A stretch of 64,000 bases of DNA from Candidatus Levyibacteriota bacterium (GCA_963790825.1 CAWBPM010000002.1:359159-423158), one strand, 5' to 3'; positions 8,901 through 57,681 are shown, counted from the first letter of the stretch. Program-made: numbers and translations. Notes: generated by a model from the sequence alone, not told the origin.

Positions 8901-10678
8901 TTTTGACGGGCAAACCTAAAAGTATGACGCATATGAACCAGATAGGTTTGCATATAGCCTTTTATCCAGCGCGACCTTTGTCTCATCCAATTCGTCAGAT
9001 TACTATTTGCCTCTTCAAATGTTGTGGAATCGATAATCGCAGTCTTATACCCTTTTTTAAAAAGCCGTATACCCATGTCCGCATCCTCAGTGACGTTAAA
9101 TGCATCCCAACCCCTTAGCTTCTTCAGATCCTCTGTCCTAAAATGATTGCTGGTTCCGCCCAGCGGTAAACTGGTTTCAAGTGATTGTAACCCCGGAAGT
9201 GTTACGTCAAACCACAGCGAATACTCTGCGGTAAAGAAACGCGTGAGAAGATTTTGTTTAGGATTATAATAATTTAATTTTGCCTGCAGGCAAACAATGT
9301 CCCGCGGACATTTTTGAAAAGCCAAATAGGCTTTTTTTAACTGCATTGGATCCGGAGAATCTTCGGCGTCGTAAATAACCAGATACTCTCCCAAAGCTTC
9401 TGATAAACCGAAGTTACAAGCTTTCGGTTTTGTTTTCGGCATCGAATAAGGAACAACGACGACTCGAACGTAAGACGGAAGTATCATTGTTTCTACCTTT
9501 TCTATAGATTCTCTGTCATCTTCTTCCAGTAAAAGCAGTACGTCTAATTTGTCTTTCGGCCACTGCAATAGCTCTATAGCACGAAGAAATTGAGGAATAA
9601 CCTGCGCTTCTTTATAGAGCGGACAAAGAATAGAGTAAATAGGAAGAGTATCGTCATTGAGGCTATTAATTTCTTTCGTGTCAACTGAAATTTCTTTATC
9701 AAAAGTCAGACTTTTGCTTACAATAAAGAAATTAAATAGTGCATCGACCAAATAAACCAGACTTAAAATGGCAATTATTATTTTTAAAGTAGTAAGAAAT
9801 TCGAAGAACAAACCAAACAGGAAAAGAGTAAGGACAGCGAAGATAAATATCTTCTGTTTTAGCTGCAGCGTATAGATCGCGGAATCATCAAAATCTAACG
9901 TAGTATGGGTAATATACTTTCTTTTTTTATAACCCATTCCTGCACCTTTCATGGAAGAAGAAGTTGTGGGAGGAATTTGTTGGGGATATAATTTTCTTAA
10001 CCTGATATATAAAGCACTAAGCAGTATCTTGCTTATGCTAGCCAAAGAAGAAACAGGTGAGTTTATTGAAAAATTCAAAGGGAAAGCAATTTCATAATTA
10101 GTGATAATAAACCCTGCCTGTTTCGCCCGGTAAAAAAATTCCAGGTTAAATGTTTGGTCGGACAGAGGATTAAACTTAAGAGTATCGAGGACCTCTCTTG
10201 AGAATATTTTTATTCCTGATTCTGTGTTTATATCTATGCCAAAAAGTGTTTTACCAAGCAGAGAGGTAAGAGTACCCGCAAATGTTCTTTTAGGGTTATT
10301 TTTTTGTTCTTTTTTCGCTGAGGCAACGATTATATCCGCCTTGTCTAACTTTTTAATCATCTCCGGAATTGCCGCAAGCGGGTAGCGTAAATCCGGGTCT
10401 ATTAGAATAACTGCGGAACCGGCCGTATTTTTAAACCCCTCAAGCACATAACCTGCCTTACCTTTTAATCCCGTGTTTCTATAAACTGAAAAATTTTTGT
10501 TTTTCTGCATTTCTTGTAATAGCTGAAGCGAGTCGTCTATCGAATAGTCATCAATAAAAATAATTTCGTAGGGGTAATTTGTAGCCGTAAATGCTTTTTC
10601 AATACCACTTATGATTTCCCCAAGCAAATTTTGCTTATTATATATAGGTATAATTATACTGATCAATCTATCTCTCAT
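5945..10678 (-). CDS. 1577-aa four-module fusion: Dpm1/GtrB-like GT2, TM segment, processive GT2 (QxxRW), Wzx-like flippase, GT4
   Basis: 1) aa 1-225: IISIIIPIYNKQNLL ... IFIDDYSIDDS, polyprenyl-phosphate sugar synthase-like GT2. 2) TM helices. 3) aa ~340-600: KTKPKACNFG ... VIYDAEDSPD ... QRSRWIKGY, a CESA/PgaC/NodC-like processive GT2. 4) aa ~735-1150: multi-TM Wzx-like module (YLGRVLSLEDFGLIGLM). 5) aa ~1160-1577: GT4 (ILNWRDTRHKWAGGAEVY ... EGWGITTIEANACGTPTVAS). It is one uninterrupted ORF. Confidence 0.8.
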   Translation of the reverse strand: MRDRLISIIIPIYNKQNLLGEIISGIEKAFTATNYPYEIIFIDDYSIDDSLQLLQEMQKNKNFSVYRNTGLKGKAGYVLEGFKNTAGSAVILIDPDLRYPLAAIPEMIKKLDKADIIVASAKKEQKNNPKRTFAGTLTSLLGKTLFGIDINTESGIKIFSREVLDTLKFNPLSDQTFNLEFFYRAKQAGFIITNYEIAFPLNFSINSPVSSLASISKILLSALYIRLRKLYPQQIPPTTSSSMKGAGMGYKKRKYITHTTLDFDDSAIYTLQLKQKIFIFAVLTLFLFGLFFEFLTTLKIIIAILSLVYLVDALFNFFIVSKSLTFDKEISVDTKEINSLNDDTLPIYSILCPLYKEAQVIPQFLRAIELLQWPKDKLDVLLLLEEDDRESIEKVETMILPSYVRVVVVPYSMPKTKPKACNFGLSEALGEYLVIYDAEDSPDPMQLKKAYLAFQKCPRDIVCLQAKLNYYNPKQNLLTRFFTAEYSLWFDVTLPGLQSLETSLPLGGTSNHFRTEDLKKLRGWDAFNVTEDADMGIRLFKKGYKTAIIDSTTFEEANSNLTNWMRQRSRWIKGYMQTYLVHMRHTFRFARQKGIHVLFFQLTVGGKLAFILLNPLLWLLTIAYFTLYPFAGHFIQSLYPSPVLYLAVLSLVFGNFMFFYCYMIGCAKRKQWGLIKYTFLIPFYWLLISIASGMALYQLLFKPHYWEKTIHGLRFKSLHSLPDVIMEQIIYIDSNNRKVFFAKIKNRFKTEIRLHGNYLAGVFYMGALGLGNLFNFLYSAYLGRVLSLEDFGLIGLMTGLFSLTSVIPRAFGATVGYKTGYLIGKYNNNTAFDFWKFTRGKLLLISIVLTILWVGLSPSLLHFFKTESLFPFLLFSPVLLVIFAYATDRGFLSSRLSFVLLGILAIFEPILKLGFAFLLVLLGLKSWAYTAIPFSVSIAFLAGWIMIVKSRKNAKETVHAEAKYFPKKYFLNSSMAALSSVILLNLDVILAKHYLSPNEAGLYSLISLVAKTIFFMGSFVSPFLIPLISRDEGTNRDSKKILMVAILGAIILAFPAVLVFGILGHYSAPYLFGQKAIAATAYLLPMSLAMLCFTISRVYGDYYLTKRYYSFAGAALLIGVLQIVLISFFHQTVFSFVYVMSFIWVFYLTITLTLHLFAVQVKTFENNMVDFFGLFKTYKKTYTKRDKLRILILNWRDTRHKWAGGAEVYIQELAKRWVKDGNAVTVFCGNSLKGPRNEIIDGVQIIRRGGFYTVYLWACLYYIFRLHGKFDAIIDSENGIPFFSPLYSFKPKFLLIHHVHQEVFRKSLKPPFSWLALFLEAKLMPLVYKSVQVVTVSPSSKEEILRHKLTKKEPMIVYNGVDLGKYKPGIKSMIPSVLYLGRLQSYKSLHILIKAAKKISESIPEVEFIIAGEGEERRKLEKYAENLGMKNKILFTGKVEEDMKIKLFQKAWVFVNPSFMEGWGITTIEANACGTPTVASNVPGLRDSINNPSTGFLVPYGDADEFANKILELITNENLRKNFSQEAIKWAYQFTWEKSAQSFYELIEKSFAGIEHELSLSAVTVNEENIKRMERYF

Positions 10679-33400: not shown

Positions 33401-34520
33401 TTTTTCGAAAAATAGTCATGAATAAGTCACGATACATATTGGAATCTTAAGGAAGAAGATTCTATGCCAAGTGATTTTAAACGAGTAAGACATTTACGAC
33501 CAAAATACTCACAAAAGAGCTATCATATACTGATGAAAATGCTCCAGAATTCATTAGCAGTTGAAGTATCCGATGTAGCTGCTTTTCGCCTTCACGTGAT
33601 TAATCACTACTACAAGTATGGACTGCGTCCAACCCTTGCTGCATTCAAAATAAAGAAGAGCAGCTTATACAACTGGAGAAATGCTTATGAACACAACGGA
33701 AAAAGGACAATCAGTTTAGTGCCACACGGAACTAGACCTCTCCATGTGCGAAAGATGGAGACAGACTGGAGAATAATTGAGTTCATTAGAGAGATGAGGC
33801 ATGAGCATGGGAATATTGGTAAAAGTATGCTCAAGCCCTTTGTTGATGCGTATGCCAAAGAGCTGGGTATTAAGACCTTGGCAGAAAGTACTATTGGGAA
33901 AGTACTTAAAAGACGTCACTTAACATTTGAGAAGAAAGTCTACCCACAGAAACAAAAAAACAAGTTCAAAAAGCTAAGAGTGAGAAAGTCTCCTAAGGTA
34001 GTTTCTCCTGGATTTATTGAGATGGATTCAGTAGTTGTCTATATCAATTTTGAGAAACATTTGTTTATGTGTGTGATTGATATTTACACAAAATTTGCCT
34101 TAGTTGTATATGTACCGGATCTCTCCTCAGTAACAGCAAGAGAGGTTTTTAAGCAGTTCCAGTGCAATAATCCAACACCGATTCATACAATCCAAACAGA
34201 TAATGGATCAGAGTTTCTCAAATCATTCCATGAGTATATAGTTGAACAGAAAATTAAACATCAATTTATCTATCCCAGAATGCCAAAGATTAATAGTTAC
34301 ATTGAGAGATTCAATCGGACAATCCAGGAGGAATTCATTTTAAGAAATGACGAGATTTACTATGACTCAGAAGCATTTGCAAAAAAGCTCACAAAGTATT
34401 TATACTGGTATAACTATAAGAGGCCACATGCTTCGCTTAAATATATGTCGCCTATGTCCTTTATACAAGCCAAGATTCCAATAAGTGCGTGACGCATACA
34501 AGTCATGCATTATTTTTTCA
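33401..34520 (+). mobile_element. Putative IS element (rve/IS481-like) with degenerate terminal inverted repeats
   Basis: It carries a single DDE transposase ORF. The candidate imperfect inverted repeats at 33401-33435 and 34485-34520 share GAAAAATA ... CATGA ... GTCACG. The boundaries are approximate. Confidence 0.4.
33464..34492 (+). CDS. DDE transposase, integrase core (rve) domain, IS481-like
   Basis: HTIQTDNGSEF ... YNYKRPHASLKYMSPMSF is the rve DDE region. An N-terminal HTH is present. Confidence 0.75.
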   Translation: MPSDFKRVRHLRPKYSQKSYHILMKMLQNSLAVEVSDVAAFRLHVINHYYKYGLRPTLAAFKIKKSSLYNWRNAYEHNGKRTISLVPHGTRPLHVRKMETDWRIIEFIREMRHEHGNIGKSMLKPFVDAYAKELGIKTLAESTIGKVLKRRHLTFEKKVYPQKQKNKFKKLRVRKSPKVVSPGFIEMDSVVVYINFEKHLFMCVIDIYTKFALVVYVPDLSSVTAREVFKQFQCNNPTPIHTIQTDNGSEFLKSFHEYIVEQKIKHQFIYPRMPKINSYIERFNRTIQEEFILRNDEIYYDSEAFAKKLTKYLYWYNYKRPHASLKYMSPMSFIQAKIPISA

Positions 34521-37999: not shown

Positions 38000-38223
38000 T
38001 ACATATCACCCTTTTTATTTTATAGCAAATATCAAATATTTACAATACTTCTTTTTGTATTAAATAATTACAATAACTCATAAGAGGACACAGACGAAAA
38101 AAGTATTTGAAATAGTTTATATATTATCGCTGTCAAGTCTTGATTTATACCGAGTTCCCATTTTGAGCATCTCAAGGTATAATATTAGCCGTATAATATA
38201 ATAATGAGATATAATAAACATAT

Positions 38224-39411: not shown

Positions 39412-40245
39412 TCAGGACAAGTTCTCGGAATTTTTTACGCGACTAAGCCGCAATTCCTGTAGTTCTCTAAAAGCATTTTCTATACGGTTGTCTACTTCCC
39501 CCATCTCCGGAGAAAAATTTGCATCCTTAGCATTCTTTCTTGAACGTATAGCAATATCTGCTTTTGTAAGATTACCAAGAAAGGTATAGAGATCCCGATT
39601 AGTACTTCCCACTGTTGCAAGCGAAGTTTCTACGGGACCGGCCAGAGTTCCGAAATTGACAGATTGCACTCCCTGTTCCTCCAACCAACTCTTTATAAAA
39701 AATGCTTTATATCCGTTATGTACTATCTCATCCAGCATAACGATACTTTGGGGTAATCTGTCATTTTTCCCTAACTTTTTTTGTAATAAATTCCTCCTTA
39801 GAGCGAAAGAGGTTCTGTATTGTTCGCCTTTAAGCAAATAGTCCACATAAAAATCTTCATCAGTATGCAGAGAGCTGCATTCCGCTTTATATAATATTTT
39901 ATTTTCTTCTTCATCAAAGGTTACAATCGGCGGGCGAAAATCTATCTCATCTATTGCAATAAGAGATCTTCTTGTAACATCAGCACTTCTTCCGCTTAGG
40001 ATAATGACGTCCGGATTAAGTCTGTCAGCCCAGATGGCAATATTTTTAGCAGCATTTGCCCATTCATTTAACACCTGCTGCGTAGGACGTAATCCGTCAA
40101 AACTAATAGTTAATTGTTTTTCGATGGGTAGGGTATTTCTCAGACGATTGTATTCATATTTCAAATCAAACTTTCTTTCTAATTCAAGACGTGCCTTTGT
40201 AATCGCATAAACTTCAGGAGATATCATGGTACCTCGATTATACAA
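39412..40245 (-). CDS. Hypothetical protein (weak phosphoribosyltransferase-like motif)
   Basis: SIVMLDEIVHNG loosely resembles a PRTase PRPP motif. Confidence 0.3.
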   Translation of the reverse strand: MYNRGTMISPEVYAITKARLELERKFDLKYEYNRLRNTLPIEKQLTISFDGLRPTQQVLNEWANAAKNIAIWADRLNPDVIILSGRSADVTRRSLIAIDEIDFRPPIVTFDEEENKILYKAECSSLHTDEDFYVDYLLKGEQYRTSFALRRNLLQKKLGKNDRLPQSIVMLDEIVHNGYKAFFIKSWLEEQGVQSVNFGTLAGPVETSLATVGSTNRDLYTFLGNLTKADIAIRSRKNAKDANFSPEMGEVDNRIENAFRELQELRLSRVKNSENLS

Positions 40246-40363
40246 TATACACAGCTTGTAGTTTAATCAGATAGAATCAAACTATTTTTGATAGTTTTTT
40301 AAGGAAATTTGAGGCTAAATCCGTGATAGCTACTGATCTGTTGAGTCTTGACAATGTCGGAAC

Positions 40364-40672
40364 TTATTTTTTCTCCCAACGGTTTTTATCTCTGCCGTAA
40401 GCCTTTTCCATAATTCTTTTAAAATGGGTGTCTAAATCTATGTTTAAAGAGTTTGCCATACAAATCACTGTAAAAATTATATCTGCGAGTTCGTCTCCGA
40501 TTTCCTGAGTTTCCTCTGCTGGTTTTTTCTTTTTTGAGCCAAATCGATGATTTATTTCTCTTGCTAATTCACCAACCTCTTCGCTAAGTCTGGCTAAAAT
40601 TTCAAAAGGTAAAAAGTAACCGATTTTATATTGAGTAACCCACTTATCTACTTCTTTTTGGAGTTGTTTCAT
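40364..40672 (-). CDS. MazG-like nucleotide pyrophosphohydrolase (small, single domain)
   Basis: SEEVGELAREI ... EIGDELADIIF carries the EExxE/D motifs of the MazG/NTP-PPase fold. Confidence 0.7.
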   Translation of the reverse strand: MKQLQKEVDKWVTQYKIGYFLPFEILARLSEEVGELAREINHRFGSKKKKPAEETQEIGDELADIIFTVICMANSLNIDLDTHFKRIMEKAYGRDKNRWEKK

Positions 40673-40727
40673 TACATGGATTATATAACAAGAGCTATAA
40701 TGTTGTAAACTGGGATGACTTCAAAAA

Positions 40728-40742
40728 GCTGTCGAGCCTGGA
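40728..40742. repeat. Copy 1 of the tRNA-Gln 3'-end 15-mer GCTGTCGAGCCTGGA
   Basis: An exact 15-mer, identical to the 3' acceptor/T-stem region of tRNA-Gln at 45296-45310. It is followed by a degenerate T-arm-like sequence (CACGTTAGAACCAG). Confidence 0.7.
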
Positions 40743-41110
40743 CACGTTAGAACCAGTTTAACCTCGCAAAGCCATTACAATTTCTTTTCATGACTATTTC
40801 TCGTATATACATATTGAACATAATATGCCGGATTATGGCTATCATATGGGATAACCTGTTTTTCAGCCATGGATTGTCTTTTTTAGTTAACGATTGTATT
40901 CTTTGTAGTGATTATCCTATTGTCAAAGTCGTTATTATCAATAAGTACATCTGACAGATGCCTCCTCAACATTAACAAGTCCGATTGTCTTGTCTTCAAA
41001 ATTTTTAGTAATTTCACTTTTAATTGAATCACCTTAAGCTGTTTTTTGTTGTAGCAGACACTTGTAAAATTCCAAAAGAATACGATATTATTAGATTGTA
41101 CCTGTAAATT

Positions 41111-42256
41111 GTGAAAAAAGATAAATCACTGGCAAAACTTTTCAAAGGCAATATTGGAATTTCATATATCGCATTTATTATAGTACTTGTAATTATATTG
41201 AGTGCTTTAATGTCGGGCGGAATTACGCCAAATAATGGTTCAACTCTGACAGGGAGCCCCGTAACTCCGATGGTCCCAGCCACGACATCTGGCCACCCCG
41301 TTCTTCAGCTATATACATTTGGGTTTACCACTCCTGCTCCTACAATTTCCACTATTTCTATAACTCCTCCTCCGGGCACAACTTCGACATCGGTTGCTAA
41401 TGGTAAAGTTTGTACAGTAGACGGTGGGGACGAAATCCTTTTAATACCGGCTTGTGGAGCTGATTCACAATGTGATTATATCAGTCAGGAATACCTGGCA
41501 TACGCTTGCGATGCCAGCTTTTGCTCTGGAAAATATGACAACGGAGTATTTTTAGATACATTATTAAATGGACCTGCCGGAGTAGTATATTGCATAGTTC
41601 AAACAGGAGCTCCGGATCCAAACGAAATAGCTACGCCCGCTAATATTGCTGCAGCAGCAGCACTAGTTCCCGGTAGCTGTCAGGAAGCCTGTGAAGGCAA
41701 ACCTGTCATTTATCTTTATCCAACCAAACCAACACTTGTCTCTGTAAGTCTCACTGTTCCGGGAGTAATTGTCGCAAGTATTCCTCAGTATCCGCAAAAT
41801 GGTTGGGAAAATGTTTTGGCACAACCTGACGGTACATTAACCTACCAGGGTAAAACATACAGCGAGCTTTTCTACGAATCTCAAGTGGATAGGGTTAGTC
41901 CTTCGCAAAGTGGCGTTGTCATTACTGCTTCTGATCTCAGAGAAAAATTAACTGAGATTACATTTAAGCTAGGACTCAAACCAAGTGAACAAGCTGAATT
42001 CCTTGGCTACTGGCTGCCAAGACTTAACCAACTTAATTCTCCCTATATTCTATTCTCACTCACCGATCCTGCGGAGAAGGAACGAATCGATCATGTGGAT
42101 ATTACACCAGCCCCTCAGACAAGAATTGAATTCCTGGTTGATTTTAAACCTCTGAAAGAACCTATACAGGTCAATCCTCTTATTCTTCCTGTCAACCCAC
42201 CAAAACGGGTTGGGTTTACCGAAGTTGAATGGGGCGGAACAATTGATTACAAATAA
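41111..42256 (+). CDS. Hypothetical exported or membrane-anchored protein
   Basis: GTG start. N-terminal TM (IGISYIAFIIVLVIILSAL). Multiple Cys residues. Confidence 0.4.
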   Translation: MKKDKSLAKLFKGNIGISYIAFIIVLVIILSALMSGGITPNNGSTLTGSPVTPMVPATTSGHPVLQLYTFGFTTPAPTISTISITPPPGTTSTSVANGKVCTVDGGDEILLIPACGADSQCDYISQEYLAYACDASFCSGKYDNGVFLDTLLNGPAGVVYCIVQTGAPDPNEIATPANIAAAAALVPGSCQEACEGKPVIYLYPTKPTLVSVSLTVPGVIVASIPQYPQNGWENVLAQPDGTLTYQGKTYSELFYESQVDRVSPSQSGVVITASDLREKLTEITFKLGLKPSEQAEFLGYWLPRLNQLNSPYILFSLTDPAEKERIDHVDITPAPQTRIEFLVDFKPLKEPIQVNPLILPVNPPKRVGFTEVEWGGTIDYK

Positions 42257-42349
42257 ATATTTCTAAGTACCGCTCTTAAAATTAAGATGCCCAACAAAAC
42301 CTAATAGTAATCCGTGCAGATTGATTGATATTCAAAACAATGAAAACAA

Positions 42350-43027
42350 CTAGCGAAGAAGTTTGAAAGAAGCAAGTATGTTGTTAAAAATACTTTCAAG
42401 TTGCGGATCTCGATTTGGCGCAATACCTATATATTTATATTCAAAAAAATAGCTGGAGCCATTATAGTACAAGATAAGGTAAGTCTTGTAAGTAACACTT
42501 TGGTTTACAAAGTTTGCTCTGATCGGAGGCGTCGTACCGAGTAACCTGGTTGCCTGGAGATTATCAACAAAAATAAAATCCATCTTAAATCCAGAATTAA
42601 CAAGAGTAAGCTCGTTTTGTTTTAGTGTCGCAGCAGCCGAACCGCTTTCAGAAAAAATGGTAATATTAGAGGAGGCAGATGAGGACATAGGTTTTATGTT
42701 TACCCCCGGTTCTGTAGGGGAAAAATTTTCTTCCTGTACCTGCCAATCCGGAGGATAAAGAAAACTATATTGAGTATTTTGATAGTTTTTCCAACCGACA
42801 GTTGGGTTGAGAGCCTGTGTTGGGAAGGATGATTGCTTGGCGATTCCGGAATTGTTTGAGACAGAATTGCCGGAATTGACAGTTCGAGGTGTACTATTTT
42901 TGCTTGTCAAACTTATAGTAAGAAAGGTAAGCAAAATAAGCAAAATCACTACTCCAAATCCGGCAGAAACAAAAAGAAGAACTTTTTTATCCAACTGAAG
43001 AGAAGCAATCTTAGAAAGAATATCCAT
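42350..43027 (-). CDS. Hypothetical membrane-anchored protein
   Basis: N-terminal TM helix followed by a Ser/Asn-rich linker. Confidence 0.4.
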   Translation of the reverse strand: MDILSKIASLQLDKKVLLFVSAGFGVVILLILLTFLTISLTSKNSTPRTVNSGNSVSNNSGIAKQSSFPTQALNPTVGWKNYQNTQYSFLYPPDWQVQEENFSPTEPGVNIKPMSSSASSNITIFSESGSAAATLKQNELTLVNSGFKMDFIFVDNLQATRLLGTTPPIRANFVNQSVTYKTYLILYYNGSSYFFEYKYIGIAPNRDPQLESIFNNILASFKLLR

Positions 43028-43267
43028 ATATCAAGTATTTCATCCCTAAAAGATCTTTGTCAACTGCTTGATTTACAAGGAAATTCTAAATATCCGAGGT
43101 TCGCTATTCCGAGTTAAAGAACTGGGCTGGCGAGTTTGTTTGGAGATGGAATTAAATATATTCTAGCTTATTAAATACTTTACTTTCGAAAAACTTAACA
43201 AACTTGGTTTCGGTACCATAATAATCGGATTGTATTAACTTTATCAGAAAGAAATAACAAACAAGTC

Positions 43268-43296
43268 TTGACAGGTATCTTATAGCGTGATATATT
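43268..43296 (+). promoter_or_regulatory. Sigma70-type promoter (TTGACA-17-TATATT) for the DUF2341 gene
   Basis: cTTGACAggtatcttatagcgtgaTATATT lies 26 nt upstream of the ATG at 43323. Confidence 0.5.
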
Positions 43297-43322
43297 TTGA
43301 ATCTAGTTAACAGATCTCGAAA

Positions 43323-44336
43323 ATGAATTATAAAAAAATTATTTTAGGTACATTTTTCTTAGCTTTATTTGGGGTTATTTTTGCTTTACACTCTACCAGT
43401 GAAGCTGCCACCACCCCATGGTGGAACAGCGCCTGGAGTTACAGGGCTCCAATAACTATAACTGAGACCTCAGGTTCAAGTCTAACTAATTATCAAGTCG
43501 CAATCACTGTCTCCTATTCTGCCAAGATGAAATCTGATTTTAGCGATATCAGATTTGTAAGTAGCGATAACGCAACTGAACTCCCTTACTGGCGTCAAAC
43601 CTACTCTGGTACTTCAGCTACTTTCTGGGTTGAGGTTCCATCTGTTCCGGCATTAGGAACTGCCAGTATCTATATGTATTACGGTAACTCCACTGCTCAA
43701 ACCACCAGCAACATCCACAACACATTTTTGTGGGGTGATGATTTTGAGAATGCAACATGGACTAGTAACAATATACATCAGGTAAACTATAGCGGTTCAA
43801 CACAATACGTACAGGGTGGTTTATATTACATGCAAGGTGCGGGGGCGAGCGAACCTATTGCCGAAATATATCAAAACGGTTCGTTGAAAAGCTTCCCGAA
43901 TAATTACATCGCTGAGGTTGATGTAAAACCAATAATTAAAGCCGGAAGCGCGTTCATTAACCCGAGATACAACTCAGTCACCGACAAGTATGAATCTTTA
44001 ATGGATATTAAATACAATGCCGCCGGTGTAAACAAAGTGGTAAATGATTCGTGGGCAACTCTTCAGTGGAATCCTGTTAACTTTACCATTAACGTCGGTA
44101 CTACGTATAAATTGAAAGCAGTAACTCTCAGGGAAGGAGCCACAAACCGATTACAAGTTTACATAAATGACGTGATGTATGTTAATCTTACCGATTCCAG
44201 TCTTTCTTATCCCGGATTGGCATTTTTAACTTACGACTGGCAGAACCCCTTTGAAGTAACCTATGATAACTTTAGAGTTCACCAGTATGCCTCAAAAGAA
44301 CCAACCAGTCTGATCGGAGCGGAACAACACCCCTAA
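43323..44336 (+). CDS. Secreted DUF2341 plus concanavalin-A-like (LamG) domain protein
   Basis: Signal peptide. TTPWWNSAWSYRAPITITETSGSSLTNYQV ... DIRFVSSD is the DUF2341 signature. Confidence 0.6.
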   Translation: MNYKKIILGTFFLALFGVIFALHSTSEAATTPWWNSAWSYRAPITITETSGSSLTNYQVAITVSYSAKMKSDFSDIRFVSSDNATELPYWRQTYSGTSATFWVEVPSVPALGTASIYMYYGNSTAQTTSNIHNTFLWGDDFENATWTSNNIHQVNYSGSTQYVQGGLYYMQGAGASEPIAEIYQNGSLKSFPNNYIAEVDVKPIIKAGSAFINPRYNSVTDKYESLMDIKYNAAGVNKVVNDSWATLQWNPVNFTINVGTTYKLKAVTLREGATNRLQVYINDVMYVNLTDSSLSYPGLAFLTYDWQNPFEVTYDNFRVHQYASKEPTSLIGAEQHP

Positions 44337-44418
44337 AAAAAGCTTGTACAATCTTTATTGTGTTCTCGGAAGAATCGAATCCTCAAATTTTCAGCTTCAC
44401 CCGCCTAAATTTGTGTTG

Positions 44419-44433
44419 GCTGTCGAGCCTGGA
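44419..44433. repeat. Copy 2 of the tRNA-Gln 3'-end 15-mer GCTGTCGAGCCTGGA
   Basis: An exact 15-mer, followed by the degenerate CTATTTCCGAAC. Confidence 0.7.
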
Positions 44434-44602
44434 CTATTTCCGAACTTATGAATGGCAAAACCCAAAGTTTATTTATTATCAGGCACAAAAATATTTATAT
44501 ACTGAAATATAATTGGGCGTATGTAAGAATATCTTTCGTTAGGTTATCTTAGAAATAGTTATTGACCAGATATAAAAAGGGTGTATACTTTCATCATTAA
44601 CT

Positions 44603-45133
44603 ATGCCTGAGAAGTTAGGACCAACAATACAATCCGATACATTACGGACAACAACTGTCGAACATCGTCAATCATCAACGACAGGAAGAAGATTGGTGGT
44701 ATTCGGTAAAGATAACTCTGTTCCACCGATTGAATATGTCTTTTTAGGTAGTGCAGAGCAATTGTTACATTTCATCGCAGTTGAACAACACCTTGATGAT
44801 ACGCTGCAACAAGGAACAACTCATACAATGCAAGATATATTTCGTTTACAACCAACCTTTCCCTCACATCTGATTAGAGAAACAGAAAAAATACTTAATA
44901 TCTATAAGATTAAAACAAATATAAGTAAAGGTGAACAGATACTAGAGGGACCGGCAGTTGCTCCAACTGCTCTAGGAGAAAAACCAAGAGTCATTGTAGA
45001 TACAACTGGTATGTGGGGACCAGTAGAATATGTGTTGGGGAAATGGAAAAAAAGCGAGCCTGCAACATCTTCAGAAGCAAGTAATCCAGTGAACAAAGAG
45101 ATGTTCCTCCTCCAGACGGACGGGCAACAGTAG
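44603..45133 (+). CDS. Hypothetical protein
   Basis: ORF only. Confidence 0.3.
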   Translation: MPEKLGPTIQSDTLRTTTVEHRQSSTTGRRLVVFGKDNSVPPIEYVFLGSAEQLLHFIAVEQHLDDTLQQGTTHTMQDIFRLQPTFPSHLIRETEKILNIYKIKTNISKGEQILEGPAVAPTALGEKPRVIVDTTGMWGPVEYVLGKWKKSEPATSSEASNPVNKEMFLLQTDGQQ

Positions 45134-45296
45134 CAAGTGCGAGCGGGAGATATTATAAATGATCCGGAAATAATCTACTGGGATCCCCTTGAAGAATTGA
45201 ATAGGTAATAATAAAAGTAAATTAAAATAAACCAGTTTGGATTCGAACCAAAATAGCTACAAAAATTAGAAGACCTTTGTTGATTTAGCCTCGTAG

Positions 45297-45367
45297 CTGT
45301 CGAGCCTGGATTCGAACCAGAATAAACAGATCCAAAGTCTGTTGTCCTACCATTAGACGACTCGACA
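45297..45367 (-). tRNA. tRNA-Gln (anticodon UUG)
   Basis: I folded this by hand. Acceptor stem TGTCGAG/CTCGACA. D-stem GTCT/GGAC. Anticodon stem ACAGA/TCTGT with loop CTTTGGA. T-arm TCTGG-TTCGAAT-CCAGG. Length 71 nt. G37 is unusual. No CCA is encoded. Confidence 0.7.
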
Positions 45368-45607
45368 ATGTTTTATTAATTCCTTAAATTGTATTCCTCC
45401 TTTATATGATTTTAACTCAATCTCTCTTTCTCTAGCCTCTTTATAATTTATAAACTCTTCAGTCAAGACTATCTTCCATGGTTTTCTACTCTTAGTAGAA
45501 AAAACTTGTCCAGCGTTATGTTTCTTTATTCGTAAATCTATATTCTTTGTTATACCTATATAATAACCATGGTCTTTGTGACTTTGTAATATATAGACTA
45601 CTACCAT
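45353..45607 (-). CDS. Small GIY-YIG nuclease family protein
   Basis: VYILQSHKDHGYYIGITKNIDLRIKKHNAG gives the GIY...YIG...R...H..G motifs. The last five codons overlap the 5' end of tRNA-Gln. Confidence 0.8.
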   Translation of the reverse strand: MVVVYILQSHKDHGYYIGITKNIDLRIKKHNAGQVFSTKSRKPWKIVLTEEFINYKEAREREIELKSYKGGIQFKELIKHCRVV

Positions 45608-45610
45608 AGC

Positions 45611-45656
45611 TGTTGTCCTACTTTACCCCGCAATGCGGGGCGAGGACGACTCGACA
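45611..45656. repeat. Duplicated tRNA-Gln 5' half, interrupted by a 23-nt GC hairpin
   Basis: TGTTGTCCTAC + TTTACCCCGCAATGCGGGGCGAG + GACGACTCGACA. Compare the real tRNA plus-strand sequence CTGTTGTCCTACCATTAGACGACTCGACA at 45339-45367. Confidence 0.65.
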
Positions 45657-52431: not shown

Positions 52432-53572
52432 CGTATCAAAAATGGCAGTTGCAATAGGTAGTATTACTTGACATTGCAATATAAACAAGTAAAAGATGGG
52501 GTATACGTAAAGTACTTTCAGTATGAAGAAATACAAATGCCCCACGTGTCAATCAACAAGGTCTGTTATCCGTCATACAAAACGAGGAAACTCCATTCGC
52601 TATAAATGTAAAAAGTGCGTAATATATTTTTCCATTAAGACAATTCATCTGGATTCAAAAGCAATATTGAATGATCATTTGGATGGTTTATCCTTTCGAA
52701 AACTAGCTATAAAGTATGATACCTCTTCCATGACAGCCTGGAGAGTATGTGAGGAAGCACTGCTAAAGCTGCCTGATAATAATAAGTTTAGCTTTAAGTA
52801 TTGTAATAGATTTTCCAATATCTATGTCTGCGATGGGAAGTATTTTAATATCAAAGGATTTGAATATGATTATGCACTGCTTTGGGGAATTGATTATTTC
52901 AAACATGATATCCCTGTATTTATCCTTGCACCTTCTGAAAACTATTCAGCCTGGGCAACGTATTTCTCTATCTTTAGAATTCTAAATAGATATATAGAAT
53001 TATTAGTTTGTGATGATAATACTAATCTTAAGCTGGCTGCCAGAAACAGCTTTCCGGAGGTTAAGATTCAAACCTGCTTTAACCATTTCAAAGAAAATAT
53101 CAGAGGGAACCTCAAGGTCAGATCAGATACTACCTATAAACCCTTTATGAGAAGAATTGAGGATATACTCACTGAAAAACTATCAGATGATGCTATGAAT
53201 AAAAAGTTATTTGCTCTTTACAAAGACTATCATACGGATCCTCTCTGTCTATCTATACTGACAAATATTGAGAAATACAAACCGGAACTTACAGCCTACA
53301 GGAATATACCGCGAGCACCTATTACCTCAAATATGATTGAAGGCTTAAATGGTCATCTTGAAGCCCGGCTTTTCTCGCTTCGTTCATTCCAATCCCTAAC
53401 TCATGCTAGATTATGGTTTAACGGATATATCCTGAAACGACGTTTTACTAAATACACTGATTGCAGAGGTAAATTTAGATACATGAACGGGAAAACAGGG
53501 GTAAGTATGACTAAAAAACACGACGTTGTCCTGCCAACGTTTTTTTAATTTCTAACTGCCATTTTTGATACG
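52432..53572 (+). mobile_element. Complete IS element, IS1595-like, with 19-bp perfect TIRs
   Basis: CGTATCAAAAATGGCAGTT occurs at 52432-52450, and its exact reverse complement at 53554-53572. A single transposase ORF lies between. The 8-mer ATAAGTGC recurs at 52419-52426 and 53579-53586 as a possible target duplication. Confidence 0.75.
52523..53548 (+). CDS. Transposase with N-terminal zinc ribbon (IS1595/IS1-like DDE)
   Basis: CPTCQSTRSVIRHTKRGNSIRYKCKKC is the Zn-ribbon. A DDE-like catalytic region follows. Confidence 0.6.
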   Translation: MKKYKCPTCQSTRSVIRHTKRGNSIRYKCKKCVIYFSIKTIHLDSKAILNDHLDGLSFRKLAIKYDTSSMTAWRVCEEALLKLPDNNKFSFKYCNRFSNIYVCDGKYFNIKGFEYDYALLWGIDYFKHDIPVFILAPSENYSAWATYFSIFRILNRYIELLVCDDNTNLKLAARNSFPEVKIQTCFNHFKENIRGNLKVRSDTTYKPFMRRIEDILTEKLSDDAMNKKLFALYKDYHTDPLCLSILTNIEKYKPELTAYRNIPRAPITSNMIEGLNGHLEARLFSLRSFQSLTHARLWFNGYILKRRFTKYTDCRGKFRYMNGKTGVSMTKKHDVVLPTFF

Positions 53573-53583
53573 CTTCTTATAAG

Positions 53584-53656
53584 TGCCGAGGTTCAGAGTC
53601 GAACTGAAATAGCCTGTTCTTCAGACAGGTGCCTTGACCACCTTGGCTACCTCGGC
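53584..53656 (-). tRNA. tRNA-Phe (anticodon GAA)
   Basis: Acceptor stem GCCGAGG/CCTCGGC. Anticodon stem CCTGT/ACAGG with loop CTGAAGA. T-arm TTCAG-TTCGACT-CTGAA. The D-stem has only 3 bp. Length 73 nt. Confidence 0.6.
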
Positions 53657-53756
53657 GAGATGACCTAACTTAATTAAACAACCCTTTTATATTTATCGAA
53701 AACAACAAAGTATTTATAATCCTAAGCACTTCAACACACTCAATGTCGAAGACTTG

Positions 53757-53790
53757 CCGAAGGATTGGCTACCTCGGCTAATGACAAAAT
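53757..53790. repeat. Degenerate duplicate of the tRNA-Phe 5' region
   Basis: CTTGCCGAAGGATTGGCTACCTCGGCTAATGAC versus CTTGACCACCTTGGCTACCTCGGCGAGATGAC at 53625-53664. The core TTGGCTACCTCGGC is identical. Confidence 0.55.
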
Positions 53791-54450: not shown

Positions 54451-57400
54451 ATGACAGAAAAATCATTGATTCATAGATTAGTAGAAGATCATTCAAGAAA
54501 TCGGGCTTTTAAAAGAATAGCAGCAGAGAAGGGAAATGCGCTGGCTATTGCAGAAATAAATAAAGATACACGTGCGTTCCATAAAAAGAGAGAAGAACGC
54601 AAAATAATTCTTCCATTAAATAACTCTCTCCCGGAAACTCCCGGTACAGAACCAATGCCTGCGTTACAAATTGTACCAACCATAACTGACAGTTCTGAAT
54701 TCATGCTAGATGTAATAAGCGATACACCTATATCATTAAAAGAGCTTTTTTTTCAGACAATATCGGAACCGGATCAATCAGGAAATACAGATCTATTATC
54801 ACCGGTAGCAGAACCAAGATTAGAAAGAGCGTTGGCATCATTCGGTTATGACAGTAATGATTTTTTGCAGCGAATAAAAATTAAACCAGAGGTACCAACT
54901 GAAACAGGACCAAGATTAGAAAGACCACTGACATCGTTCAATCCTGATGGCAAAGATTTTTTGAAGAGAGTAAAAATTGGAGCAGAACCAACAGAAACTG
55001 AAACCAAACAACCGGCAAGTACTCAAACACCAGAGTTAGTTGAGGCACCCGTAATAAAACCTATTGAAATGCCTAGAGGCCGCAGGAAAAGATTTGCCGG
55101 TCGAGTTGCCGTAGCTGCACTTACTTTAGCTGGCGTACTCGGAGCAATGCCTGGCCGTACCAGTGCAGACCAAGCATCCACGACGCCCAGAGCAATAACA
55201 TCAGATTCTTCCTTGGTTATTCCGACTCCTGATATAACTAATCCCATAACCGTCACAACTGTTTTAAGTGGTACCAGAGTAACATCTTCAATTACAGGCA
55301 CTGAGAATATTACCTCAACTAATCCTTTGACGGTAACCGACGCAGCACCTATAACCAGTACGGAAAATATCTCCCAAACTAATCCATTAACTAATACTGA
55401 TGGGATAAGCGATACAAATCCGCTGACTTTAACAGACACCAGTCCAATAAGTCCTACCGGCACTGCGATTGCAACTCCTGAACCGAGTGGTACACCAACA
55501 CCTGATGACCCATCACCAAGTACGACGAGCAGTCCTACTCCGAGCTCTACCGGCACACCGAATCCTTATATTAATCCGGATACTGTTTTTCCGCCAAGTA
55601 TTTATTCTGGCCCACGTGTAGATTACACTATTAATCAACCTGGACCACACGCAATCCTTAAGGAAAGAGTGCCCGGGGATGGATCGACAGATTACGCTTC
55701 AGACACAAAAGATGGATTAGATACAGTATCTGCTATGCTTAACCCAAAAACAAATCAACCTGATCATATGTATGTTTGCCAAGTATATACAGATTATAAT
55801 GGGAAAAATGCCATAACAACGAAATTTGTTGAAAGCAGTTTACTTACTCAGAGTCAACTTAATACCATAACATTACCGGGTAACGGAATAGATCTCGCGT
55901 ACAATGCCGATAAGCTAAACTTAATACCTACCGGTGGGATTAAAACAAACACCTATGCATTTGAAACATTGCCAGGTAATGAATGTGCGCCTAAAGCTCC
56001 GCCACCTCCTTGTAAGACTCCGACGGGAACACCAACGGCAATACCATCTGAAACAGCAACAAATACTCCGTCTGCGACTGCTTCCGAAACTTTAACAGCA
56101 ACGCCATTACCTACTGAGACACCTCAAAATACTCCGACGGGAACACCAACGGCAATACCATCTGAAACAGCAACAAATACAGTAACACCCGTACCGACAG
56201 ACACCTTGACACCGACAGCAACCGCGACTAGAACCGCAACTCCTTATTATCCGCCTCCTCCGCCATATATTCCTCCACCTCCTTATTATCCGCCTCCTCC
56301 GCCATATATTCCTCCACCGACTCTTACCTTTACACCGGTACCGACAGCTACTGCGACGTTTACATTCACGCCGACACCTTCGGCAACTGAAACGTCAACA
56401 AATACGCCAACTATAACTCCAGTTGCAACTAATTCCGAAACTCCGACAGCGACCAAAACCCCTCGCCCACGACCCAGTGCAACTCCCCATCTGGTTAAAC
56501 AAACATGTGAAACAATCGTAAACAAAGTGAAAAACATGAAAGAATTAACAAAGAAGCAAAAAACTAAACTTGAGGAACAGCTTGAAAAAAAATACCATTT
56601 AATATGTAATATAATTCCGACTCCAAGCAGAACTCCGCGACCTACGCATACTCGAACCGCAACAGCTACCCGAACTGAAACTCCAAAACCACCACATACA
56701 CCGACTCCTACTGATACACTTACGCCAACTGCAACAAAAACAGCTACCCGAACTGCAACCAGTACCAGAACTGCTACAGCAACATTTACCTTTACACCCA
56801 GACCAACAGAGACTCATACGCCGACAGCAACACCAACTGAAACTCCAAAACCACCACATACACCGACTCCTACTGATACACTTACGCCAACTGCAACAAA
56901 AACAGCTACCCGAACTGCAACCAGTACCAGAACTGCTACAGCAACATTTACCTTTACACCCAGACCAACAGAGACTCATACGCCGACAGCTACCCCAAGT
57001 GAAACACCAAAACCAACCTCTACCCGAACAGCGACTGCTACAGCCACGTTCACTGCTACCCTAACACCTACTCCTACTGATACACTTACGCCAACTGCAA
57101 CGCGAACATCAACAAGAACACCTACTTTTACTGCTACTCTCACACCGAGACCGACCCGAACTGAAACTCCGGTTCCGCCAACTCCGACGAGAACTGCGAC
57201 GATGGTTCCTCCAAAAACAGGCGCGTTTGCAGAATCAGGAATTTTGTCAGATTTACTCTGGAGTCAACCAGTCAAAAAAGATAAAAACTTTAATAAAATC
57301 TGCTACTACGACTTTTCGAAAAATAACCAGCACGTTAGATACCGAAGCGCTGAAGGATTCATAAAAGGAGTGGCAGCCACTCACATATTGACCGACCCAA

Positions 57401-57681
57401 GTGAATCTGATGAGATAGGAGCTGCTTTACGAAAAATAGGTACTAACGAAACGCCGCAGCAATTAAGGGGTAGCATTATCCAGGATAATTTTAAACCGGA
57501 TGACCCAATTGAAGCCGGCGCATTTAATGAGTTATACGACCAGGAACCAACCATTCGTGATGCAGTTGCCAAAATGGTTGCATCAACGAAATTACAAAAC
57601 AACATGGGACCCAATCAGGATGCCATTTCTTCAGGTCCTTTCATTTATACCAGCATGTGGAAACCGCTTAATGGTTATTAA
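54451..57681 (+). CDS. 1076-aa single-pass membrane protein with a Thr/Pro-rich repetitive ectodomain
   Basis: The N-terminus has two roughly 33-aa repeats (PRLERALASFGYDSNDFLQRIKIKPE / PRLERPLTSFNPDGKDFLKRVKIGAE). TM RFAGRVAVAALTLAGVLGAMPG. A TP-rich region with YYPPPPPYIPPPP x2 follows. Exact 54-aa tandem repeats and a conserved C-terminal globular region are also present. Confidence 0.6.
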   Translation: MTEKSLIHRLVEDHSRNRAFKRIAAEKGNALAIAEINKDTRAFHKKREERKIILPLNNSLPETPGTEPMPALQIVPTITDSSEFMLDVISDTPISLKELFFQTISEPDQSGNTDLLSPVAEPRLERALASFGYDSNDFLQRIKIKPEVPTETGPRLERPLTSFNPDGKDFLKRVKIGAEPTETETKQPASTQTPELVEAPVIKPIEMPRGRRKRFAGRVAVAALTLAGVLGAMPGRTSADQASTTPRAITSDSSLVIPTPDITNPITVTTVLSGTRVTSSITGTENITSTNPLTVTDAAPITSTENISQTNPLTNTDGISDTNPLTLTDTSPISPTGTAIATPEPSGTPTPDDPSPSTTSSPTPSSTGTPNPYINPDTVFPPSIYSGPRVDYTINQPGPHAILKERVPGDGSTDYASDTKDGLDTVSAMLNPKTNQPDHMYVCQVYTDYNGKNAITTKFVESSLLTQSQLNTITLPGNGIDLAYNADKLNLIPTGGIKTNTYAFETLPGNECAPKAPPPPCKTPTGTPTAIPSETATNTPSATASETLTATPLPTETPQNTPTGTPTAIPSETATNTVTPVPTDTLTPTATATRTATPYYPPPPPYIPPPPYYPPPPPYIPPPTLTFTPVPTATATFTFTPTPSATETSTNTPTITPVATNSETPTATKTPRPRPSATPHLVKQTCETIVNKVKNMKELTKKQKTKLEEQLEKKYHLICNIIPTPSRTPRPTHTRTATATRTETPKPPHTPTPTDTLTPTATKTATRTATSTRTATATFTFTPRPTETHTPTATPTETPKPPHTPTPTDTLTPTATKTATRTATSTRTATATFTFTPRPTETHTPTATPSETPKPTSTRTATATATFTATLTPTPTDTLTPTATRTSTRTPTFTATLTPRPTRTETPVPPTPTRTATMVPPKTGAFAESGILSDLLWSQPVKKDKNFNKICYYDFSKNNQHVRYRSAEGFIKGVAATHILTDPSESDEIGAALRKIGTNETPQQLRGSIIQDNFKPDDPIEAGAFNELYDQEPTIRDAVAKMVASTKLQNNMGPNQDAISSGPFIYTSMWKPLNGY
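56677..57000. repeat. Two copies of a 162-bp coding tandem repeat
   Basis: GAAACTCCAAAACCACCACATACACCGACTCC ... recurs at 56677 and 56839. It encodes ETPKPPHTPTPTDTLTPTATKTATRTATSTRTATATFTFTPRPTETHTPTATP(T/S). Confidence 0.8.

Follow-up and report, generated by a model that had tools for sequence, protein, structure and literature searches.

Partial and nested tRNA-Gln copies beside a single-domain GIY-YIG nuclease gene in a Levyibacteriota genome: possible repeated insertion into a tRNA gene with gene-end replacement

Transfer RNA (tRNA) genes are classic landing sites of integrase-borne islands. In this report we describe a tRNA-Gln locus of a Candidatus Levyibacteriota bacterium, analyzed within a stretch of 64,000 nucleotides (nt) that is referred to as the window (GCA_963790825.1, CAWBPM010000002.1:359159-423158). 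The locus suggests a second, integrase-free way for DNA to accumulate at a tRNA gene, probably through the action of a bare GIY-YIG nuclease that is accompanied by GC hairpins and by partial or nested tRNA copies. Integrative elements that target tRNA genes resemble it in that an insert downstream of an intact tRNA is bracketed by directly repeated copies of the tRNA 3' part, and such inserts can be stacked. The locus departs from these elements in lacking an integrase and any compositional signature, in having a 5' partial copy and nested complete tRNAs, and in that terminators are included in the duplicated flanks of relatives.

Several described systems come closer. The Ssn proteins (cd10448) are single-domain GIY-YIG nucleases that cut single-stranded DNA site-specifically and are associated with NTS/SRM hairpin motifs, and the authors who characterized them pointed out that the hairpin-gene-hairpin architecture resembles a mobile element (Chenal et al. 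2025; PMC11893778). Replacement of a gene end with displacement of the native end is known for the mORFs of fungal mitochondria (Allomyces atp6; Glomus atp6, atp9, cox2 and nad3; PMC3630166). The phage T4 protein SegB is a free-standing, site-specific GIY-YIG homing endonuclease encoded in a tRNA cluster and is needed for the preferred inheritance of that region (PMC2330249). Anti-defence loci can undergo segmental amplification driven by SegB, as reported for a case centered on tRNA-Tyr (PMC13096335).

Read along the minus strand, the locus in the window begins with a 5' partial tRNA-Gln copy, which is followed by an open reading frame (ORF) for a GIY-YIG nuclease of 84 amino acids (aa), the intact tRNA-Gln gene and a series of partial copies of the tRNA 3' end (Table 1). 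We assign a probability of about 0.5 to an explanation in which DNA was inserted repeatedly into tRNA-Gln with replacement of the gene end, probably driven by an Ssn/Slx1-like nuclease and in the absence of element-borne integrases. This explanation is favored in the first place because the 5' piece (tRNA positions 1-30) and the 3' piece designated B (positions 31-73) make up a split outer gene around a complete tRNA and an ORF. The 5' piece consists of TGTCGAGTCGTC, then CTCG-CCCCGCATTGCGGGG-TAAA, then GTAGGACAACAG, and the GC hairpin CCCCGCATTGCGGGG (45626-45640; -9.9 kcal/mol, z=-2.1) sits in its D-loop. Its CCCCGC...GCGGGG stem is the single instance among the 19 GC-rich hairpins found in the window; covariation in the stem is unusable as evidence because the stem sequence is nearly invariant.

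The nuclease ORF is fitted closely between the two tRNA sequences. Its start abuts the 5' piece, which stops 1 nt short of the ATG and provides an AGGA 8 nt upstream of it, and the hairpin lies 20 nt upstream of the ORF. At the other end, the final 15 nt and the stop codon are inside tRNA-Gln, the stop being the TAA of the D-loop. The nearest solved structure to the protein is UPF0213 BH0048 (PDB 1ZG2, E=1.7e-7). Residues Y5, Y16, R26, H30 and E62 are invariant across five GIY-YIG homologs, and these Tyr, Arg, His and Glu residues match the positions expected of a GIY-YIG active site (as in I-TevI). A group I intron with an intron-borne endonuclease was considered and rejected, because an Rfam search of 39-48 kb at E<=1 gave just two tRNAs and the ORF takes up all 241 nt that separate the 5' piece from the tRNA.

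The 3' pieces were first recognized from the 15-mer GCTGTCGAGCCTGGA, which has three exact sites on the plus strand (40728-40742, 44419-44433 and 45296-45310) at successive distances of 3691 and 877 nt. These are the positions and the intervals of roughly 3.7 and 0.9 kb that were reported in a first-pass annotation, made by a model from the DNA alone. A fourth copy is absent from the window even at <=2 mismatches (chance expectation 0.02). The site at 45296-45310 is the last 15 nt of the tRNA-Gln region and serves as the reference copy; on the minus strand it spans the final T-loop base, the 3' strand of the T-stem, the 3' strand of the acceptor stem, the discriminator G and one flanking base. 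The annotation was right that this copy alone belongs to an intact tRNA, since the other two are the ends of partial tRNA-Gln copies, and also that T-arm-like sequence follows them, which in fact reaches as far as an anticodon-loop remnant. A shorter T-arm fragment placed by it at about 45228 does exist, at 45237-45255 (17/18 identity). A generic dispersed repeat can be set aside, as the copies repeat the tRNA 3' part in direct orientation on one strand and lie solely downstream of the gene.

At least five same-strand 3' pieces (A', B, C, D and E) lie in the 7.2 kb downstream of tRNA-Gln, and no such piece was found upstream of the gene or on the opposite strand. Pieces D and E were revealed by a 14-mer search at <=3 mismatches, which gave six matches against 1.56 expected, and the two have a TCAAGAC variant in common. 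In piece B the T-loop is changed to GTTCGGAAATAG. No significant fold is predicted for pieces B and C (z=-1.3 and +0.2). Piece C, the outermost of the exact copies, is directly followed by TTTTT, as in the native flank of the tRNA-Gln of the closest relative (locus L025); this T-run fits a displaced native end, which piece C in particular resembles. Between piece C and MazG, and upstream of the latter, a strong promoter-like site, TTTACA-18-TATAAT (11/12; 40680-40709, minus strand), follows piece C directly.

Independent Logan contigs from this sample (ERR11594402) break at 44297/44299 and at 45322/45351, not at the repeats. The break at 45322-45351 is inside the tRNA and is probably caused by a k-mer common to related organisms; the one at 44297-44299 is unexplained and could reflect strain variation.

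Table 1. Positions of the tRNA-Gln gene, its partial copies and the genes among them in the window
Feature	Position	Strand	Description
5' partial tRNA-Gln copy	45609..45656	-	tRNA positions 1-12 + 18-30; blastn-short 12/12 + 12/12
84-aa single-domain GIY-YIG nuclease ORF	45353..45607	-	Pfam GIY-YIG E=1.4e-14, residues 3-67
Intact tRNA-Gln(UUG)	45296..45367	-	ARAGORN; Rfam RF00005, 62 bits
Piece A', T-arm remnant	45228..45275	-	compensatory stem TTTGG/CCAAA; acceptor strand decayed
176-aa ORF	44603..45133	+	near-orphan between tRNA and piece B; no family, no signal peptide
Piece B, partial tRNA-Gln copy	44419..44470	-	anticodon loop (ACTTTGG) to 1 base beyond discriminator; final 15 nt exact
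DUF2341 protein	43323-44336	+	signal peptide; between pieces B and C
225-aa protein	42350-43027	-	membrane-anchored; between pieces B and C
381-aa protein	41111-42256	+	membrane-anchored; between pieces B and C
Piece C, partial tRNA-Gln copy	40728..40773	-	GCTTTGC ... CTGG TTCTAACGTG TCCAGGCTCGACAGC; final 15 nt exact
Piece D, degenerate 3' piece	40338..40363	-	GTTCCGACATTG TCAAGACTCAACAG; begins 1 nt past MazG stop codon
Piece E, degenerate 3' piece	38129..38151	-	GGTATAAA TCAAGACTTGACAGC; gap between HflX and histidine-kinase gene

Insertion with gene-end replacement is also favored because two relatives, L004 and L026, provide clean examples of this nesting. L004 is the closest relative by HflX, and in it a complete tRNA-Gln(ttg) lies within a second tRNA-Gln that is split after the anticodon (9421-9603 of QZIP01000047.1, minus strand), and the insert is bordered by CCCGCC and GGCGGG arms. 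When the outer halves are joined they give a perfect 72-nt tRNA-Gln cloverleaf with an acceptor stem unlike that of the inner gene; piece A' of the window is similar to the outer 3' half. No GIY-YIG gene is present at this nested tRNA-Gln. In L026 an outer 5' piece is followed by the nuclease ORF, the inner tRNA-Gln and an almost full-length outer copy that holds four GC hairpins, the removal of which restores tRNA-Gln. The order in the window (5' piece, ORF, complete tRNA, piece B) parallels this nesting. A recombinase acting at a tRNA 3' end cannot give an upstream 5' half together with a complete inner gene, whereas a tRNA-bearing segment inserted into a resident gene can yield the nested layout.

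L004 also carries, at 6431-7300, a 225-aa ORF that resembles an IS200/RAYT-type transposase by eye ('MPNHFHFLL'), with an approximately 45-nt repeat, cgtaatcaacctgggaggttgattagctaggcaacctaggga, on both sides of it.

The 3' pieces are partly conserved among relatives. The tRNA-Gln of L025 has one D-loop difference from that of the window and the same acceptor stem and 15-mer, and the two loci are syntenic upstream (MFS transporter, tRNA-Gly, then GIY-YIG and tRNA-Gln). A B-type piece is located 1366 nt downstream of the L025 gene; its 13-nt variant T-loop, AGTTCGGAAATAG, is identical to that of the window, its acceptor part has decayed (three mismatches), and the surrounding block (44416-44499 in the window, 7619-7702 in L025) is 77% identical over 84 nt (E=2e-13). 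The two loci differ in the genes that separate the tRNA from piece B, namely the 176-aa orphan in the window and NADAR plus a methyltransferase in L025. The T-loop of piece C, GGTTCTAAYGT, is also found in two pieces of locus L023 (7365 and 8030) and at five places in 877 kb altogether, one of which is a duplicate of the window's piece C in contig L019; a more degenerate C-type T-loop, GATTCTAACGT, occurs one further time in L023. Genes separate the tRNA from a 3' piece only in the window, L023 and L025 (a single piece). Loci L024 and L026 have no gene-separated 3' piece, and the outer 3' copy of L026 comes directly after its tRNA.

Because the piece B block is conserved in L025, piece B is old. 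As judged from these alignments, the pieces are old and partly conserved, with acceptor parts that match each genome's tRNA, and are not freely decaying scars. The first-pass annotation had spoken of a decayed stack of integrated elements. It is reasonable to suppose that insertion at the tRNA pushed old 3' ends outward, and to that extent the description would hold; remnants left to decay freely do not agree with a block that is 77% conserved.

A metagenome scan with an alignment of GIY-YIG proteins gave 71 further loci (72 in all), in which the linkage of nuclease, hairpin and tRNA recurs. The favored explanation draws on this set because a tRNA directly adjoins the ORF at 63 of the 72 loci, most of the others being cut by contig ends, and because the proteins group by tRNA species (Gln, Glu, Lys, Asn, Met, Arg, Trp and Val). 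Two layouts are observed: 5' piece with hairpin, ORF and tRNA, or tRNA, ORF and hairpin with 3' piece. The three nearest homologs with usable context (62-71% identity) are each encoded directly upstream of tRNA-Gln, and a hairpin-bearing 5' partial tRNA-Gln copy precedes each gene. Such a piece is present in 11/11 Gln-type loci, and the order 5' piece, ORF, intact tRNA with junctions of 0-13 nt is seen in all 11 of them and in most other loci.

Enrichment of tRNA-end copies and GC palindromes near GIY-YIG genes is a further reason for the preference. An upstream copy of the first 12 nt accompanies 40/107 tRNAs near a GIY-YIG gene and 2/39 other tRNAs, and a downstream copy of the last 12 nt accompanies 23/107 and 2/39, respectively. 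Searched downstream on the same strand, 3' 12-mers gave 16 matches in 193 kb compared with one in 558 kb of control DNA. GC palindromes (CCGCC-n3-5-GGCGG, or CCCGC-n3-4-GCGGG in the Gln group) number 115 within 600 nt of GIY-YIG ORFs and 6 elsewhere; a second tally gives 103 and 5. The 5' pieces follow the acceptor of their own tRNA (11.3/12 own versus 9.5/12 cross, p=0.0007). Where the ORF comes after the tRNA (L062 and L085), the duplicated piece takes in the tRNA's own terminator or T-run, which argues for homology-based duplication rather than a short att core. The terminators within duplicated pieces, the native-type T-run of piece C and the tracking of each tRNA by its 5' piece are therefore counted in favor of gene-end replacement. 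Inserted and displaced copies are unlike in L026, L030, L032 and L004 and identical in the window and most loci. Full-text literature searches yielded no account of loci in which a GIY-YIG gene is fused to a tRNA gene and partial or nested tRNA copies occur.

One tRNA-Lys locus is more elaborate (L091, 7254-8055). Two 5' pieces are arranged around its GIY-YIG ORF and two tandem full-length pseudo-tRNA-Lys copies lie downstream, each with a perfect 16-bp palindrome, TCCGCCAGCTGGCGGA, replacing 8 nt and with its own copy of the terminator.

In the mechanism that we envisage, each event would insert DNA into tRNA-Gln near the anticodon loop and would bring or rebuild a complete tRNA copy, keeping the essential tRNA working. 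The old tRNA end would be displaced outward, a gene-end replacement as with the fungal mitochondrial mORFs. We infer that the nuclease is the cause: the initiating breaks or single-strand cuts would most likely come from the 84-aa GIY-YIG protein, which, like the nuclease of an Ssn/SRM pair, would act on or close to its cognate GC hairpin. In this presumed order of events, DNA between the working tRNA and the displaced end would be captured or would ride along with no element-borne integrase, and the intervening genes may have arrived in this way. The mechanism is also favored because no integrase is present and because mORFs, SegB and Ssn offer precedents for its parts.

The likeness to Ssn extends to several features. 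Ssn proteins are ~90-aa single GIY-YIG domains without a DNA-binding domain and with catalytic Tyr, Arg and Glu, comparable to the 84 aa here; GC-rich hairpin inverted repeats flank the gene, after a GTC-containing flank, and each nuclease subfamily is paired with its own hairpin type. By analogy, the GIY-YIG system described here plausibly works in a similar manner. There are also differences. Around the 72 nuclease genes no strict match to the published SRM pattern was obtained, the hairpins here are carried by partial tRNA copies, the nuclease gene is joined directly to a tRNA gene, and neither tRNA nor Patescibacteria is mentioned anywhere in the Ssn paper (PMC11893778). One CCCCGC...GCGGGG hairpin is present in the 64-kb window as against hundreds, and the best solved relative of the protein here is UPF0213 BH0048.

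A mORF is likewise an endonuclease ORF in a host gene and brings along a substitute for part of its host, so that the native end is displaced as a non-functional duplicate; inserted and native ends of mORFs can differ in origin, as those of L026 and L030 may do. The nuclease ORF that abuts the tRNA gene with a partial duplicate on the other side corresponds to this arrangement. In contrast to mORFs, the target here is a bacterial tRNA gene, either end can be duplicated, the duplicates bear GC palindromes, the nuclease consists of the catalytic domain only, and several displaced ends follow one another with entire genes in between. SegB shares the embedding of a GIY-YIG nuclease gene among tRNA genes, and no palindrome-bearing partial tRNA copies or nested tRNAs are described for it; the loci here are chromosomal and belong to Patescibacteria. 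SegB is a longer, multi-domain phage protein.

A number of observations weigh against nuclease-driven insertion with gene-end replacement. One 5' piece and one nuclease gene are present for five 3' pieces, which leaves most events without a visible 5' partner. Pieces B and C have no GC hairpin, and a search of 40000-45352, from the tRNA to pieces B and C, for a hidden GIY-YIG remnant gave only noise. Pieces B and C match the tRNA exactly over their last 15-16 nt next to altered T-loops, and the variant loops are conserved between genomes; the sharp 15-mer boundary would also fit a site-specific crossover. In L023, seven co-directional genes form an array downstream of tRNA-Gln with a piece in nearly all of the intergenic gaps, and this one-piece-per-gap array looks more like site-specific capture. 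The predicted nuclease has no DNA-binding domain, and the housekeeping genes HflX and MazG are located between pieces. The window is part of a Levybacteria-like Patescibacteria genome (a 751-kb contig), and the collections searched contain no close relative of it. A clean empty site was not found among relatives, whose HflX is <=75% and YunG <=60% identical and in which synteny does not extend past HflX; exact-protein look-ups with contig results gave only contigs of the same sample.

A more specific form of the explanation can be put forward tentatively. The locus might be a natural 'cleave-and-rescue' homing cassette, in which a minimal GIY-YIG nuclease travels with a replacement for an essential tRNA and inserts into the resident copy, the latter is left as hairpin-marked halves and neighboring genes can be dragged along. 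If so, repeated rounds would produce gene arrays punctuated by tRNA-end remnants, and this would amount to nuclease-based, integrase-free gene capture at the tRNA genes of Patescibacteria.

Classical tandem integration at the 3' end of tRNA-Gln (attB), with the old ends left as attR, is considered unlikely; this includes the variant in which the integrases were later lost, or integrase-less islets were mobilized in trans, and the GIY-YIG module is an unrelated neighbor. Such integration would account for direct same-strand 3' repeats solely downstream of the gene, for the sharp identity boundary at the 15-16-mer and for the native-type flank at piece C, and GGTTCTAAYGT and GTTCGGAAATAG, which are conserved between genomes next to host-matched acceptor parts, could be read as an attP arm with a host core. 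However, the larger ORFs of 36.7-49.7 kb, scanned against Pfam, NCBIfam and PHROGs, include no integrase of the tyrosine or serine recombinase type, and no integrase is present in the L023 array. The sole transposases in the wider window, rve (33464-34492) and IS256-like (52523-53548), are both of the DDE type. The interval genes have a GC content of 0.38-0.43 and a synonymous codon log-likelihood of -1.10 to -1.15, compared with a window range of -0.92 to -1.29, so there is no composition shift. Among viral sequences in IMG/VR, 86 single 15-mer matches (about the chance number by a rough estimate) were obtained and none has a tRNA-like or att-like context. The presumed cargo is a conserved chromosomal gene pair plus housekeeping genes, piece B is conserved with L025 though the enclosed genes differ, and the 5' partial copy and nested complete tRNAs are left unexplained. 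The first-pass annotation had interpreted the repeats as att-type remnants of tandem integration within intervals devoid of integrase. Its displaced-3'-end geometry is partly supported and the missing integrase is confirmed, whereas the integrase mechanism (no integrase, no attP, ordinary composition) and the compositional deviation that it proposed to look for are not supported.

The rve ORF at 33464-34492 (plus strand), approximately 6 kb beyond piece C, has rve/rve_3 integrase-core domains and is an IS3/IS481-type DDE transposase; it is not a site-specific tRNA integrase.

Less likely again is an integron-like cassette array, in which the ~40-nt pieces would act as attC-like sites bounding small cassettes taken up in succession and the tRNA-Gln 3' end as an attI-like site for an unconventional or unknown recombinase. 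L023 is the locus that most resembles such an array, with nearly one piece per gap among small, unrelated, co-directional genes and with ATTTAGSC after the pieces; no recombinase was found in it, just as no recombinase or integrase is adjacent to the array in the window. Piece motifs that are conserved between genomes while the intervening genes are unrelated would suit cassettes, as would the start of piece D immediately past the MazG stop codon. L023 is nevertheless alone in looking cassette-like. Gene orientation in the window is mixed and HflX is included, and gene-separated pieces are restricted to three loci, with none in L024 or L026. The pieces also lack a significant fold. Finally, it is improbable that the pieces are selected functional non-coding elements (processing or termination signals, or protein-binding sites) rather than insertion footprints, given that the exact last 15 nt of B and C beside altered loops, a B block conserved in L025 where neutral DNA should be unalignable, and acceptor parts that follow each genome's tRNA are set against the lack of consistent placement with respect to the ends or strands of genes in the window, of significant structure in B and C and of any Rfam match, and against the decayed acceptor of the L025 B-type piece.

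If the nuclease drives the events, Ssn-type nucleases would gain a concrete genomic role. Insertion with gene-end replacement, if true, would account for pseudo-tRNA fragments and for 'split' or nested tRNA genes in ultra-small bacteria, and would provide a testable natural analogue of cleave-and-rescue gene drives. Loci of this kind will mislead tRNA annotation, as well as island predictors that read tRNA-end repeats as att sites.

The genes between the pieces are of mixed character. The 381-aa and 225-aa genes form a convergent pair, and the 381-aa protein has >300 homologs. In two other Patescibacteria (L097 and L098) the pair lies between rpsB-tsf-frr and glyA, and ARAGORN found no tRNA at the loci that hold it there. 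MazG, a 277-aa protein and HflX are encoded among pieces C, D and E. The first-pass annotation held that the intervals encode only exported hypothetical proteins, delivered as secreted-protein cargo. Export is consistent with the signal peptide of the DUF2341 protein and the membrane anchors of the 381/225 pair, and not with the 176-aa ORF, which has no signal or transmembrane start. Delivery of foreign secreted-protein cargo is unsupported, because the 381/225 pair sits in core contexts elsewhere, housekeeping genes lie among the pieces and composition is ordinary.

The pair is a conserved two-gene module of unknown function and not the usual cargo of an island, with weak PsbP_2 matches for the smaller partner, and is present in up to three tandem pairs in L097 (7020-13588) and L098 (6192-10389).

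Elsewhere in the window, the first 14 nt of tRNA-Phe (53656..53583) are repeated 108 nt upstream, at 53743-53778 (minus strand). The repeat is followed by CCTTCGGCA, which is like the 3' acceptor strand of the tRNA, and the whole resembles a collapsed mini pseudo-tRNA-Phe with no ORF. The IS256-like transposase ORF (52523-53548) is located just past the 3' end of tRNA-Phe. Further along, a 1076-aa ORF (54451-57681, plus strand) has no Pfam match, and the strongly skewed composition, above all of 56001-57000 (GC 0.47, GC skew -0.44, AT skew +0.35) suggests a repetitive or low-complexity protein.

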